From: an uncultured bacterium
GTDB taxonomy: Bacteria > Zixibacteria > MSB-5A5 > CAIYYT01
Length of the DNA: 64,000 nucleotides
Direction of reading: 5' to 3'
NCBI GenBank assembly: GCA_963726455.1
Contig: CAVSCK010000004.1
Coordinates: 1,735,676 to 1,799,675, forward strand
Within the stretch, counting starts at the first letter, position 1. Each line of letters opens with the position of its first letter. The notes below the pieces were generated by a model. It did not search any database. It was not told the origin of the DNA and worked only from the letters and a program-made list of their open reading frames with translations. A program made the translations under genes and the position numbers. Positions 57,186-64,000 of this stretch are shown one piece after another.

Positions 57186-58673
57186 TCACTCGCCAAATAC
57201 CAGGGCTTGAAACTTGTGAATCACGGCATCCGGGTTCTTGTATGCGTCGCTCGGCAACCCCGCCTTCTCACATGTTTGCTCCAGAAACTGCGTGCGATTC
57301 CAGCCATAGTCCGTCGCCACCTGAGGCAGCAACAGGCCCCGATTGTTTCCGAGAGAAATCATGAGGCCATCGCGACCGACTTGGATGTCATCCAGCGACT
57401 CTACCTGCACCAGCGGCGTCAGAACCGAAATCTCAAGCTTTAGTTTCGGCACTTCAGAAGCGACGACCGGTACGAAACGAGGGTCCGAGACAGCCGCTTT
57501 AACTGCACAATCGGAGACCGTCTTGTAAAGCGGCTCGACTGCTATCGTGTAGCCGATGCAGCCGCGTAGTTGCCCATTCTCGTTCAGAGTGACAAACGCA
57601 GCGCCCGGTGCCTTGAGTCTTTCCGACACGTCGAAGTCAGGCACTGTTCCTTTGGCCAAGTAGCTCTCAATCGACCTGCGGGCAATTTCCAGGAGCATCT
57701 TCTTGTCGCCCGCCGACAGCGCGGTCGATTGCTCCTCAGGTGTCTTTTCAATCTGTCCCTGTTTCTCGGGATCAGTCTTCTTCGTAGGAGACGACGACTT
57801 GTAGATCGCGGCTGCAACATATCCGACCACTGTGGATTTGTCTCCGGTGATGTCACCGGAATCGCCATACCGCAATATCTTCACTTTGTCGGCGCCCATC
57901 GCCTTGGCGGCTTTCAGCACGGCAAGAACGGGGCCACCGCCACACATTTCCACCTGCCCCGTGCTCAGATATTGCTGAAGCTTCGCTATTTTGAATTTGT
58001 CCAGGCAGTCCATGCCCAGCGAATCCATTTTGTAGCCCTCTTTCGCCGGGCGATAATGTTGCCAATCCGAAGATGCGATCATAACTGAATGATTATCCAG
58101 CTTCAGGGATGCCAGAGCTTTCGCGGTGAGATCAATTTCCATTGCGCTCTGCGTTCCCATAACCAGCGGCACAATACGGAAATCCTTCAGTACCGTCTGC
58201 AAGAACGGAACCTGCACCTCCAGCGAATGCTCGCGCTCATGCGGTTGAGATGCAACTGCGAATAGTTCGTTGAATGCGAGAACCTTGTTGCAGAGAGAGT
58301 CGTCGCACGCAACGTTTCCCAATGGCGTTTTCCATATGATGCCCGGTCCATAGACCGATACGCCCTGGTATCGAACGTAATGCGATGGTCCACAGAGAAT
58401 GACCTTCTTAATGCCGGAATCTTGCAGGAGCTTGTATGAATATGCGGCCACCGGACCTGAGTACGGATAGCCCGCGTGCGGAACGACCAGCGCGATAAGC
58501 CGTCCTTCGATGGCCGGCTCGCTGACCTTGCCTAGAAACGACTCGACCGCTCCTCTCAATTCCGCGCTATCTGCCGGATAGAATTGGCCTGCCACCGCCG
58601 GCTGCCTTATTGTGGCGCTTTGTGAAACGGCAACGGCGAATATCAACGTGCAGAGTATCACGAATCTTTTCAT
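57186..58673 (-). CDS. amrB: AmmeMemoRadiSam protein B (Memo-like) fused to protein A (AMMECR1), with N-terminal signal peptide
   Basis: GGAGGAG RBS before ATG 58673; MKRFVILCTLIFAVAVSQS then RQPAVAGQFYP, PHAGY.YSG, GPSH, EHSLEVQ.PFL, SSD..HY, MCG; linker; then AAFVTL...LRGCIG, EISVL, GLLLPQV, KAGL. Confidence 0.92.
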   Translation of the reverse strand: MKRFVILCTLIFAVAVSQSATIRQPAVAGQFYPADSAELRGAVESFLGKVSEPAIEGRLIALVVPHAGYPYSGPVAAYSYKLLQDSGIKKVILCGPSHYVRYQGVSVYGPGIIWKTPLGNVACDDSLCNKVLAFNELFAVASQPHEREHSLEVQVPFLQTVLKDFRIVPLVMGTQSAMEIDLTAKALASLKLDNHSVMIASSDWQHYRPAKEGYKMDSLGMDCLDKFKIAKLQQYLSTGQVEMCGGGPVLAVLKAAKAMGADKVKILRYGDSGDITGDKSTVVGYVAAAIYKSSSPTKKTDPEKQGQIEKTPEEQSTALSAGDKKMLLEIARRSIESYLAKGTVPDFDVSERLKAPGAAFVTLNENGQLRGCIGYTIAVEPLYKTVSDCAVKAAVSDPRFVPVVASEVPKLKLEISVLTPLVQVESLDDIQVGRDGLMISLGNNRGLLLPQVATDYGWNRTQFLEQTCEKAGLPSDAYKNPDAVIHKFQALVFGE

Positions 58674-58757
58674 TGGACTCCTCCGGACTGATTCAGGCCC
58701 AAAGTGGTGCGGGCAAAAACCGTACCCCTTCCGCCAGTAAGGGTGTATATTCAGTAT

Positions 58758-59678
58758 ATGAGCCGGGTCGTTGTGGTCAAGTACATTGGCGACCAGCGAA
58801 ATCGCCCTCTTTCTCAATCGGATTACGAAATTCTTCTCAATTCCGCCTTCCTGACGCTTTCTGGTAACGGCGATTTGCAGGCCGCCATTCGAAAGTATCT
58901 GCCCGACGGTGTAGTTGGTATGAAGCCGAACTGCCTGGCGCACAAATGGAATGCGACGCCGGTGCCTCTTATCGACGCTCTCTCGAATCTGTTGACATCG
59001 ACCGGTTTGCGCGACAAAGACATTGTCGTCTGGGAGCGCAGCAACCGTGAATTATCTGCCTCCGACTACAAACTAAATGCGACCTCGACCGGTCGGCGCT
59101 GCTTCGGCACTGATGCCACCATTGCTGGCTATAGCAGCGATTTCTATTCGTTTGGCGAGGTCAACTCGTTGGTTACGCGCATCTTGACTGAAATCGTCGA
59201 CGTCAACATCAATCTGCCCGTATTGAAAGACCACTCCGTCGCGGGTTTGTCGGGCGGCATGAAGAATATGTACGGCGCTATCAACAACCCTAACAAGTAC
59301 CACGCCGACAACTGCAATCCGTTCTGTGCCCATGTCAATCTCTTGGAGCCGATTCGTACGAAGAACCGGCTGACCATTATTGATGCCGTGCGCGTCCAGT
59401 ACAATGGCGGACCCGGCTTTGTGGAAGACTATATCGCCTACTTCGGCGGAATCGTCGTAAGCGACGACCCGGTTGCCGCCGATCGAGTGGGTCTCGAAAT
59501 AATCGAGCATTTTCGTGCGGTTAACGGCTTGCCGACTCTCGATAGGGTCGAGCGTCCCGTGAAATACCTGGCGACGGCGGAGAAACTCGGCCTGGGGACT
59601 GCTGATATGAAGAAGATTGATTTGCAGGTTCTGTCTGTCGACAAAAGCGGTCGACATAACTCGGAGACACTATTCTAA
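58758..59678 (+). CDS. DUF362 domain protein
   Basis: GMKPNC, VVWER, LPVLKDH..AG.SGGMKN.YG, IIDA....YNGGP, DPVAAD; start placed at ATG 58758 (track start 58704). Confidence 0.85.
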   Translation: MSRVVVVKYIGDQRNRPLSQSDYEILLNSAFLTLSGNGDLQAAIRKYLPDGVVGMKPNCLAHKWNATPVPLIDALSNLLTSTGLRDKDIVVWERSNRELSASDYKLNATSTGRRCFGTDATIAGYSSDFYSFGEVNSLVTRILTEIVDVNINLPVLKDHSVAGLSGGMKNMYGAINNPNKYHADNCNPFCAHVNLLEPIRTKNRLTIIDAVRVQYNGGPGFVEDYIAYFGGIVVSDDPVAADRVGLEIIEHFRAVNGLPTLDRVERPVKYLATAEKLGLGTADMKKIDLQVLSVDKSGRHNSETLF

Positions 59679-62959: not shown

Positions 62960-62996
62960 CCTACGTACATCAAGACTTTTGAGAGTAAATCCGTCG

Positions 62997-64000
62997 TCAC
63001 GAGATTCGGTTAGGTGGGGGAGTTAACTTGCGATTCCGTAGCAGCAGTTGATTCCGATTCGACCGCGACTCGCCGACCGAGGTGATGTAGATCGCCGCAT
63101 CGCCGGTAACCGGGCACGCATACTCGCAGGCGCCACAACCGGTACAGAGTTCGGGATCGACCGACGGGCGCTTGACTTTCACTTCTTCCTTGCGACGATT
63201 GAATGCCGTTTCTTCCGCGAAGTAAATCGCTTTCGGCGAAGTTGGGCACCACTCTTCACACACAATGCAGGGCGTAGCCATCGCCCAGGGCAGGCAACGG
63301 CCGCGATCAATGAACGCCGTGCCGATGCGGTTTGGCGGCACAGTCTCGCTGCCGACCTTGCGGGTAAGTGTCAATTCGGAAATCGCTCCCGTCGGACATA
63401 CTTGTCCGCAGAGAGTGCAGGTCGGTTCACAATAGCCAATCCTGGCAATTAATATCGGTGACCACAGTCCTTCAGCCCCGGCTTGCAGCAGAGTCGGATG
63501 AAGTGCATTGTTCGGGCAAACCCGCATGCATTGACCGCATCGTATACAGCGGGAAATGAACTGGTTCTCCGGAAGCGAACCCGGCGGGCGGATCAAGCGA
63601 GGATTGGAATTCACTTCGAAGGCATCGCCCGATCGCAGCAGCGGCACAAGTGCAACTCCGCTGGCAAGGGATGCCAGCACCATGCGGCGCGAGGCGTCAA
63701 CCTTCTGCGTGCTCGCCGGACTGGCAGCCGTGGCAACTCGCTCTGGGTAGAACTTGAAACTGAGAGATGACGCAGGGCATTCCGCCTGACAGTTGAGACA
63801 GAGATGGCACTCCGGCTGCCGCCAGACTGATCCCACATCAGGCCCGTCTGCTCCCTGACAATGCAGCAGGCACAGGTTGCAGTGATTGCAGGTTGCTTCG
63901 TCTTTCGTAAGTCCGAAGATTGTCCAGCGTGAAAAGACGCCGAGTAATGCCCCGAGCGGACAAATGCCTCGACACCAGAAACGTGTGATCAGGCGATTCA
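62997..64000 (-). CDS. Membrane polyferredoxin (NapH/MauN plus MauM/NapG-like), 5' end beyond the window
   Basis: The frame stays open to the window edge: RFWCRGICPLGALL, CNHCNLC, CHLCLNCQAECP, RRMVL...IRPPGS, CIRCGQCMRVCP, CEPTCTLCGQVCPTGAI, CIVCEEWCP, CTGCGACEYACP. Confidence 0.88.
   Translation of the reverse strand, partial: NRLITRFWCRGICPLGALLGVFSRWTIFGLTKDEATCNHCNLCLLHCQGADGPDVGSVWRQPECHLCLNCQAECPASSLSFKFYPERVATAASPASTQKVDASRRMVLASLASGVALVPLLRSGDAFEVNSNPRLIRPPGSLPENQFISRCIRCGQCMRVCPNNALHPTLLQAGAEGLWSPILIARIGYCEPTCTLCGQVCPTGAISELTLTRKVGSETVPPNRIGTAFIDRGRCLPWAMATPCIVCEEWCPTSPKAIYFAEETAFNRRKEEVKVKRPSVDPELCTGCGACEYACPVTGDAAIYITSVGESRSNRNQLLLRNRKLTPPPNRIS

Follow-up and report, generated by a model that had tools for sequence, protein, structure and literature searches.

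A putative periplasm-facing AmmeMemoRadiSam variant with export signals conserved across bacterial phyla

Radical S-adenosylmethionine (SAM) enzymes depend on SAM, on a cluster that is sensitive to oxygen and on an electron of low potential, and each of these is seen as a resource of the cytoplasm. Can such an enzyme work on the outer side of the membrane? This question is raised by a locus at the end of a 64,000-nucleotide stretch of an uncultured Zixibacteria genome (GenBank assembly GCA_963726455.1, contig CAVSCK010000004.1, positions 1,735,676 to 1,799,675), the whole of which is called the window below. The locus encodes an AmmeMemoRadiSam trio, consisting of the radical SAM enzyme AmrS and a fusion of AmrB and AmrA (Memo and AMMECR1 domains), together with a DUF362 protein, a membrane protein and a polyferredoxin. 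AmrS has a predicted twin-arginine translocation (Tat) signal and the AmrB-AmrA fusion a predicted Sec-type signal. In our best reading of the sequences, this cluster is a periplasm-facing AmmeMemoRadiSam variant with its own electron supply, and we put the probability of an extracytoplasmic action of the trio at roughly 60%.

Open reading frame (ORF) calls and matches to Pfam and NCBIfam identified six genes from 56.1 kb to the end of the window (Table 1). As stated in an initial annotation made from the window's sequence, the gene for the Memo-AMMECR1 fusion with its Sec signal (amrBA) lies divergently, at a distance of 84 bp, from an operon of DUF362, Tat-signal AmrS and the membrane protein. 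It had also been right that this operon converges on a NapH/NapG-like polyferredoxin gene, which lies 37 bp away and is cut at the window end. Within the operon, the stop codon of the DUF362 gene (DUF362a) and the ATG of amrS share one base (TAATG), and the ATG of the membrane-protein gene follows immediately after the amrS stop. The amrBA gene is one gene away from amrS. As in the canonical AmmeMemoRadiSam system (TIGR04335, TIGR04336 and TIGR04337), the three proteins are encoded as neighbours and all score above the curated cut-offs. The locus differs from the canonical system in the Tat signal on AmrS, in the Sec-type signal on AmrB-AmrA, and in the added DUF362, membrane and polyferredoxin proteins, which in relatives are joined by a DUF6599 protein. 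We know of no function that has been established for the canonical system.

One indication of export is the N-terminus of AmrS. The protein scores 366.8 bits against TIGR04337 (cut-off 220), and the alignment to this model begins only at residue 49. The preceding extension of 48 residues, which starts MRRRAFLQCVGCGAAAVAAT, contains RRRAFLQ at residues 2-8, and the radical SAM motif CX3CX2C (CNVNCKFC, residues 127-134, with C127, C131 and C134) lies well behind it. Signals in this study were assigned by eye and by motif and not with a trained predictor. On this basis, AmrS matches the N-terminal pattern of Tat substrates, namely S/T-R-R-x-F-L-K and a hydrophobic stretch followed by the mature domain. 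To see how general this is, we scanned one genome per species and obtained 80 loci with AmrS relatives of 53-80% identity, which come from at least six phyla and whose titles include Zixibacteria (closest), Acidobacteriota, Aminicenantes, Calditrichota and Gemmatimonadota. Nearly all 80 AmrS homologues, across several phyla, have an RRxFLK Tat motif and a hydrophobic stretch, with variants such as DRRSFLK, NRRAFLK and KRRQFFK. The segment is thus conserved despite its position outside the core of the family and outside the family model. The catalytic part does not distinguish between exported and cytoplasmic AmrS. Conservation reaches at least 90% in each of the two sets for the radical SAM cysteine triad, for eight further cysteines and for some 30 more residues, and there is almost no group-specific position. 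This suggests that the same chemistry presumably takes place on both sides of the membrane.

The second component has an export signal of a different type. AmrB-AmrA scores 268.8 bits against TIGR04336 (AmmeMemoRadiSam protein B, cut-off 26) and 179.9 bits against TIGR04335 (AmmeMemoRadiSam protein A, cut-off 99), with Pfam E-values of 4.3e-68 for Memo and 1.3e-51 for AMMECR1. Its N-terminus, MKRFVILCTLIFAVAVSQSA (approximately residues 1-20), has by eye the appearance of a classical Sec-type signal peptide, and the Memo domain starts at residue 24. In the related loci, a hydrophobic signal precedes Memo in all AmrB-AmrA copies that adjoin AmrS, and the only signal-less exceptions are additional Memo copies in two loci, L022 and L074. 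The two signals read from the window in the initial annotation, Tat on AmrS and Sec on AmrB-AmrA, therefore both appear to be conserved across phyla. Lipoprotein status was considered for AmrB-AmrA and rejected, as there is no lipobox. In L022, from an Ignavibacteriota bin (9947-12675), no Tat extension can be seen on AmrS, and it has neither a DUF362 nor a membrane-protein neighbour of the kind found here; it adjoins an AmrB-AmrA with a signal and a further Memo gene without one.

Next, we focused on the neighbourhood of AmrS. ORFs were called in all 80 loci and compared with the window proteins, and presence was counted in those 44 loci whose sequence extends for 6 kb or more to each side of AmrS, with neighbours within 10 kb. 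DUF362 was found in 41 of these 44 loci, the membrane protein in 38, AmrB-AmrA in 29 and a secreted DUF6599 protein (PF20244) in 18. In 65 of the 69 loci with enough upstream sequence, a DUF362 gene precedes amrS at a distance of no more than 300 bp. The recurrence of neighbours and signals in these 80 loci, which represent several phyla, shows that the arrangement exceeds what is expected by chance. In the closest locus (L001, with an AmrS that is 80% identical), a second DUF362 paralogue (DUF362b) has a stop codon that overlaps the start of the polyferredoxin gene, and a DUF6599 gene follows; DUF362b and DUF6599 genes are thus probably located just past the end of the window. In Acidobacteriota, the order on one strand is polyferredoxin-DUF6599-DUF362-AmrS-AmrBA, which means that the link to the polyferredoxin recurs in a different arrangement. 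Loci of the Aminicenantes type lack AmrB-AmrA.

DUF6599 is a seventh recurrent neighbour. This secreted or lipidated protein (motif LFEYINGAAE.YLSYDF) is encoded at 9438-10334 (+) in L001 and in 26 other loci, and in Aminicenantes-type loci its gene holds the divergent position that amrBA has in the window. A search of the PDB with the DUF6599 profile found no relative. In L024 (13943-20759) and about ten similar Aminicenantes-type loci, electron-transfer genes lie directly downstream of the membrane-protein gene. They encode HdrC-like and HdrB-like (CCG) proteins, a ferredoxin, the alpha, beta and gamma subunits of a 2-oxoacid:ferredoxin oxidoreductase, an HdrA-like protein and MvhD (FlpD). 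Synteny within this one phylum weakly suggests that such cytoplasmic modules, which make low-potential electrons, are linked to the cluster.

To place the exported enzymes within the wider AmrS family, an exhaustive search was carried out, which yielded 7791 relatives, and the best 150 cluster representatives were classified by their N-terminus. About 79 of these 150 have no N-terminal extension, about 36 have a Tat-like extension, 14 have a long N-terminal fusion and 4 have a hydrophobic start without RR; the remainder are N-truncated or have another short extension. By Pfam, P0142 and P0149 combine FMN_bind, NapH-like and AmrS domains, P0152 combines DsbD_2, FMN_bind, NapH-like and AmrS, and P0133 and P0150 combine DsbD_2 and AmrS. 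An RR-anchor and FMN_bind precede AmrS in P0168 and P0170, and a signal and a beta-propeller or CBM_11 domain precede it in P0123 and P0127. FMN_bind domains are extracytosolic (PMC8238504). Fusions with these and similar domains thus indicate that AmrS can be located outside the cytoplasm and is tied to membrane electron-transfer modules. In a quick FastTree phylogeny, one group of 54 rows comprised 33 Tat-tagged sequences, 11 fusions, 3 sequences with a hydrophobic start and 7 untagged ones, and the other 81 rows were almost all untagged. The export tag changes 6 times on this tree, compared with a mean of 40 when labels were shuffled. With a support of 92 for the split, which was not starred, a single origin of export-tagged AmrS is likely but not proven.

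Among the relatives, P0136 looked like a fusion of AmrS with a major facilitator superfamily (MFS) protein and was rejected as evidence, being an apparently truncated or frameshifted gene call. P0161 is a single chain of a signal peptide (no RR), Memo, AMMECR1 and AmrS. P0163 is the same Memo-AMMECR1-AmrS fusion in a record that is N-terminally truncated, so that any signal would be unseen, and both were placed in that half of the tree which otherwise lacks signals. Four further relatives (P0158, P0200, P0237 and P0263) have an insert of about 450 residues, intein-like by look, inside the CX3CX2C motif of AmrS, the last cysteine of which would be restored only after splicing.

A periplasmic radical SAM enzyme would need electrons, and the polyferredoxin is the candidate source. 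Its best NCBIfam matches are NapG and NapH/NosR, all under cut-off (110.6 against a cut-off of 269 for NapG and 37.3 against 213 for NapH). The window holds the C-terminal 333 of approximately 562 residues, with the second CX3CP, two [4Fe-4S] motifs, an SRRM sequence with a transmembrane (TM) segment and four NapG-like cluster motifs. The complete order can be read from the full-length orthologue in L001 (562 residues, 83% identity), which contains two stretches of PF12801: helices with two CX3CP motifs (PF12801), two [4Fe-4S] motifs, the internal SRRM with the TM segment, and four more cluster motifs. By its sequence, this internal segment is recognisable as the former Tat signal of NapG, and its RR is conserved across phyla (L001, L005, L008 and L046). 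The protein shares with NapGH and NosR modules the membrane domain with two CX3CP motifs, the [4Fe-4S] motifs on the cytoplasmic side and the NapG-like periplasmic domain with four clusters. Unlike in NapGH, NapH and NapG are combined in one chain, and there is no FMN_bind domain. No napA, napB, napC or genes for a nitrate, nitrous oxide or organohalide reductase were found near the polyferredoxin gene. In a published survey (PMC8238504), NapH-like (PF12801) proteins are presented as modules that conduct electrons across the membrane to redox enzymes outside the cytosol. In contrast to the modules of that survey, which names no radical SAM enzyme, the partner here would be one. That the polyferredoxin supplies the electrons had been suggested in the initial annotation, and the AmrS relatives fused to NapH-like, FMN_bind and DsbD_2 modules provide independent support for it.

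The same suggestion had extended to DUF362 as a deliverer of electrons, which found no support here: the protein has the fold of LarA and is not recognisable as an electron carrier. The AlphaFold2 model of DUF362a (predicted local distance difference test, pLDDT, 95) was compared with the PDB by Foldseek, and the top 11 matches were all nickel-pincer enzymes of the LarA type, including lactate and malate racemases (E-values from 4e-7 to 9e-4). For the malate and lactate racemases, the probability was 1.00 with E = 4e-7 and a query-normalised TM-score of about 0.47. In the model, DUF362a thus has the lactate-racemase fold, and DUF362 and the LarA domain (DUF2088) are members of one Pfam clan, CL0471 (PMC11770544). 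DUF362a differs from LarA in belonging to a separate Pfam family and in being about 100 residues shorter. In Pfam, DUF362a matched PF04015 only and not DUF2088, the model of the LarA family, and searches of PDB sequences with DUF362a, DUF362b and a DUF362 profile returned nothing meaningful and no LarA chain. DUF362a has the invariant motif K157-D-H159-x9-K169-N followed by the invariant H182. The His-x9-Lys-Asn motif is invariant in both paralogues, DUF362b included, with a further His 13-14 residues on. The same spacing separates the catalytic His174 from the cofactor-tethering Lys184 in LarA1, where His200 is the nickel ligand. As a lead rather than a result, H159, K169 and H182 may be the counterparts of these active-site residues; no DUF362a counterpart of the catalytic H108 of LarA1 was identified. 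A Tat signal is found on 31 of 31 DUF362a copies from Acidobacteriota, Calditrichota and Gemmatimonadota, and DUF362b has an RR motif and a membrane anchor.

The membrane protein combines an MFS-like membrane part with a domain of the SpeE fold (MFS-SpeE). The SpeE-fold domain occupies approximately residues 208-508 and is inserted between the seventh and the eighth TM helix, and the AlphaFold2 model (pLDDT 92) has 7 + 7 helices around it. The description as 'SpeE-like' in the initial annotation had a weak basis in the single sequence (E about 1e-4), but it is solid at the level of the family, where a profile of 43 sequences matched the polyamine aminopropyltransferase 1UIR in the PDB with E = 7.7e-34. 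Foldseek matched the central domain to SpeE with TM-scores, normalised to the target, of 0.64-0.72, and the homology to SpeE includes the N-terminal beta-hairpin domain. The membrane part matched PfHT1, SV2A, EfpA and NorC, with target-normalised TM-scores of 0.38-0.53 and E-values from 1.6e-3 to 1.7e-2, and had no match to a Pfam MFS family. The protein falls below the cut-offs of NCBIfam NF037959 ('fused MFS/spermidine synthase') and of PRK03612. Among the 43 homologues, lysine and arginine average 16.7 in the loops on the side of the N-terminus and 4.5 on the opposite side. The two loops separated from the insert by a single helix carry a strong positive charge, which predicts an extracytoplasmic location for the SpeE-fold domain. 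The position of this domain between two halves of seven TM helices each, with a predicted outward orientation, sets the protein apart from SpeE and from NF037959.

Taken together, these components suggest the following scheme. AmrS would fold and gain its Fe-S clusters in the cytoplasm and be exported by Tat, in this lineage probably with the signal-less DUF362a as a passenger, and AmrB-AmrA would be exported by Sec. The polyferredoxin would conduct electrons from its clusters on the cytoplasmic side across the membrane to its four periplasmic clusters, and from there to AmrS directly or via DUF362. AmrS would then cleave SAM reductively and, with AmrB-AmrA, modify a substrate located in the envelope. 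MFS-SpeE might move and hold the adenosyl co-substrate, or else the products of this co-substrate or the substrate, which is the weakest step. Our confidence in electron delivery by the polyferredoxin, in periplasmic SAM cleavage with modification of an envelope substrate and in the role of MFS-SpeE is much lower than in the extracytoplasmic location itself.

Several observations weigh against this scheme. We know of no SAM and no low-potential donors in the periplasm. Many carriers are Terriglobia, which are commonly aerobic, so that a periplasmic cluster would be exposed to oxygen. For a radical SAM cluster, the potential of quinol is too high. Quinol is the presumed electron source of NapH-type modules (PMC8238504). 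Two AmrS relatives, P0161 and P0127, have Sec-looking signals ahead of the radical SAM domain, which is difficult to square with the export of a folded Fe-S enzyme. All 34 DUF362a copies from Zixibacteria, Aminicenantes and bins with similar labels lack a signal, including the copy in the window; the division of the signal by phylum, together with the one-base overlap with amrS, fits export of DUF362a as an AmrS passenger. In the SpeE-like domain of the window, GRTEFG replaces the Gly-rich loop, and a proline (in L-P-A-G-D) occupies the position of the catalytic Asp of SpeE. The reference motifs, which are partly derived from the 1UIR alignment, we take to be a GGGDGG loop and D-S-S-D-P with the catalytic Asp. 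The family consensus is GGGxxGS and N/D-L-P-E/D-P, with Asn or Asp at the catalytic position in most relatives, and the Gly loop of the window's clade is GRxEFG. Judged by these motifs, the membrane protein is not a standard aminopropyltransferase, and the degenerate nucleotide loop in the window makes SAM binding uncertain. The earlier proposal that the protein moves SAM, substrate or product is compatible with the MFS-like fold and the predicted outward position of the SpeE domain.

The frequency of the polyferredoxin, present in 11 of the 44 well-flanked loci and, among the Zixibacteria loci closest to the window, in no more than about one half, is a further point of this kind. The co-occurrence of exported AmrS with its partners, which had been put forward as a check, was thus found for DUF362 and the membrane SpeE-like protein and is less constant for the polyferredoxin. 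These counts would suit a different division of the locus, in which AmrS, AmrB-AmrA, DUF362a and MFS-SpeE form an exported core and the polyferredoxin belongs to a separate module of DUF362b, polyferredoxin and DUF6599 that is merely a frequent neighbour. The polyferredoxin gene is indeed coupled to its own DUF362 paralogue and not to amrS, and in the window it lies on the opposite strand. However, the adjacency occurs in two arrangements in distant phyla, AmrS relatives are fused to NapH-like modules, and the paralogy of DUF362a and DUF362b ties both operons together, which makes this division unlikely. A further possibility, which requires no periplasmic SAM, is that the radical SAM chemistry precedes export: AmrS would act once in the cytoplasm on DUF362a or on itself, for example in cofactor maturation, and the finished complex would leave by Tat, with AmrS mainly as a carrier or maturase. 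Tat is generally known to export folded, cofactor-loaded complexes, DUF362a is coupled to AmrS and signal-less here with signal-bearing orthologues in other phyla, and the DUF362 fold is that of enzymes with a covalently tethered cofactor. We nevertheless consider this order of events improbable. AmrB-AmrA would leave unfolded by its separate Sec-type signal and would thus meet AmrS only outside, the transmembrane Fe-S conduit and the AmrS-FMN_bind fusions imply a continuing supply of electrons on the outside, and an AmrS behind modules with multiple TM helices cannot be a free cytoplasmic maturase.

It could also be argued that the N-terminal extensions are non-functional and that an ordinary cytoplasmic AmmeMemoRadiSam system lies beside unrelated membrane proteins, given that the signals were judged by eye and motif and that a few relatives have odd ones. 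This would leave the retention of RRxFLK and a hydrophobic stretch across phyla at 53-80% identity, outside the family model, without a reason, as well as the parallel signals on AmrB-AmrA, on DUF362 in three phyla and on DUF362b, the position of export-tagged AmrS on one side of the quick tree, and the AmrS fusions with extracytosolic FMN_bind; it is very improbable. If the trio does act outside the cytoplasm, as we prefer to read the locus, the scheme may extend to a whole branch of the AmrS family in many diderms, with AmrS exported by Tat or anchored to the membrane on the outside and fed by a NapH conduit, MFS-SpeE supplying or clearing the adenosyl co-substrate, DUF362 contributing a tethered organometallic or hydride-transfer cofactor, and a lipid, quinone, glycan or protein of the envelope as target. 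We offer this full version tentatively, and expect that it is more likely to fail in one of its parts than to hold throughout.

An exported AmrS branch spanning multiple phyla, if true, would extend radical SAM chemistry to the cell envelope, and SAM and low-potential electrons would then have to cross the membrane by routes not yet known. It would also provide a new handle on Memo, AMMECR1 and DUF362, three long-standing unknowns, of which Memo and AMMECR1 have links to human disease. As an exported version narrows the substrates to molecules accessible in the envelope, it argues against an exclusively nucleic-acid role; according to the initial annotation, modification of nucleic acids had been predicted for trios of this kind. 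In the searchable literature, we found no description of this cluster or of an exported or periplasmic radical SAM enzyme, and AmmeMemoRadiSam appeared there in passing annotation mentions only. The main survey of extracytosolic electron-transfer modules (PMC8238504) is silent on radical SAM enzymes.

Table 1. Features of the AmmeMemoRadiSam locus and adjacent genes, in window coordinates.
Feature	Coordinates	Strand	Basis or remark
SelD	56109-57164	+	TIGR00476, E = 3.3e-113; selenocysteine TGA at 56169-56171
amrBA (AmrB-AmrA, Memo + AMMECR1 fusion)	57186-58673	-	TIGR04336 and TIGR04335 above cut-off
AMMECR1 domain	57195-57692	-	Pfam; RGCIG motif at residue 370
Memo domain	57813-58604	-	Pfam
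AmrB-AmrA signal peptide	58614-58673		by eye
Intergenic gap, amrBA and DUF362-amrS-membrane protein operon (divergent)	58674-58757		84 bp
Sigma-70-like match	58780-58753	-	10/12 positions; consensus match only
DUF362a	58758-59678	+	PF04015, E = 7.8e-18
AmrS radical SAM enzyme	59678-60817	+	TIGR04337
AmrS N-terminal extension (residues 1-48)	59678-59821		RR motif
AmrS CX3CX2C	60056-60079		residues 127-134
Membrane protein, 713 residues, 14 TM helices, MFS-like + SpeE-fold domain	60818-62959	+	family profile, AlphaFold2, Foldseek
SpeE-fold domain	61439-62341
NapH/NapG-type polyferredoxin, C-terminal 333 residues	62997-64000	-	Pfam, NCBIfam; gene extends past window end
Polyferredoxin SRRM + TM segment	63627-63692
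AIF/ferredoxin-reductase-like flavoprotein	54812-55990	-	adjoins qNOR-type gene
qNOR-type nitric oxide reductase, 764 residues	52372-54666	-	Pfam
Secreted protein, 485 residues, putative M16-type peptidase	50808-52265	+	by eye

In 55500-64000, a search for Rfam families returned none, SAM riboswitches included, and no public sequencing run was found to contain the stretch. The remaining genes around the cluster appear to be unrelated to it. The SelD gene is convergent with amrBA, from which it is separated by 21 bp. Its in-frame TGA lies in SCAGUASK (with TGA translated as U), which identifies the product as a selenocysteine-containing SelD and indicates that the organism uses selenocysteine. 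The initial annotation was thus correct in placing a selenocysteine SelD next to the cluster, but SelD is not a conserved neighbour: no homologues of SelD, of the FAD reductase or of qNOR were found in any of the 80 related loci, and these three were therefore rejected as parts of the system and are regarded as unrelated neighbours. The qNOR-type protein, which matched no NCBIfam model at E <= 0.01, has by Pfam an N-terminal NorB cytochrome-c-like domain followed by haem-copper oxidase subunit I. Upstream of its gene, the window encodes a secreted protein with a signal peptide that resembles, by eye, an M16-type peptidase.

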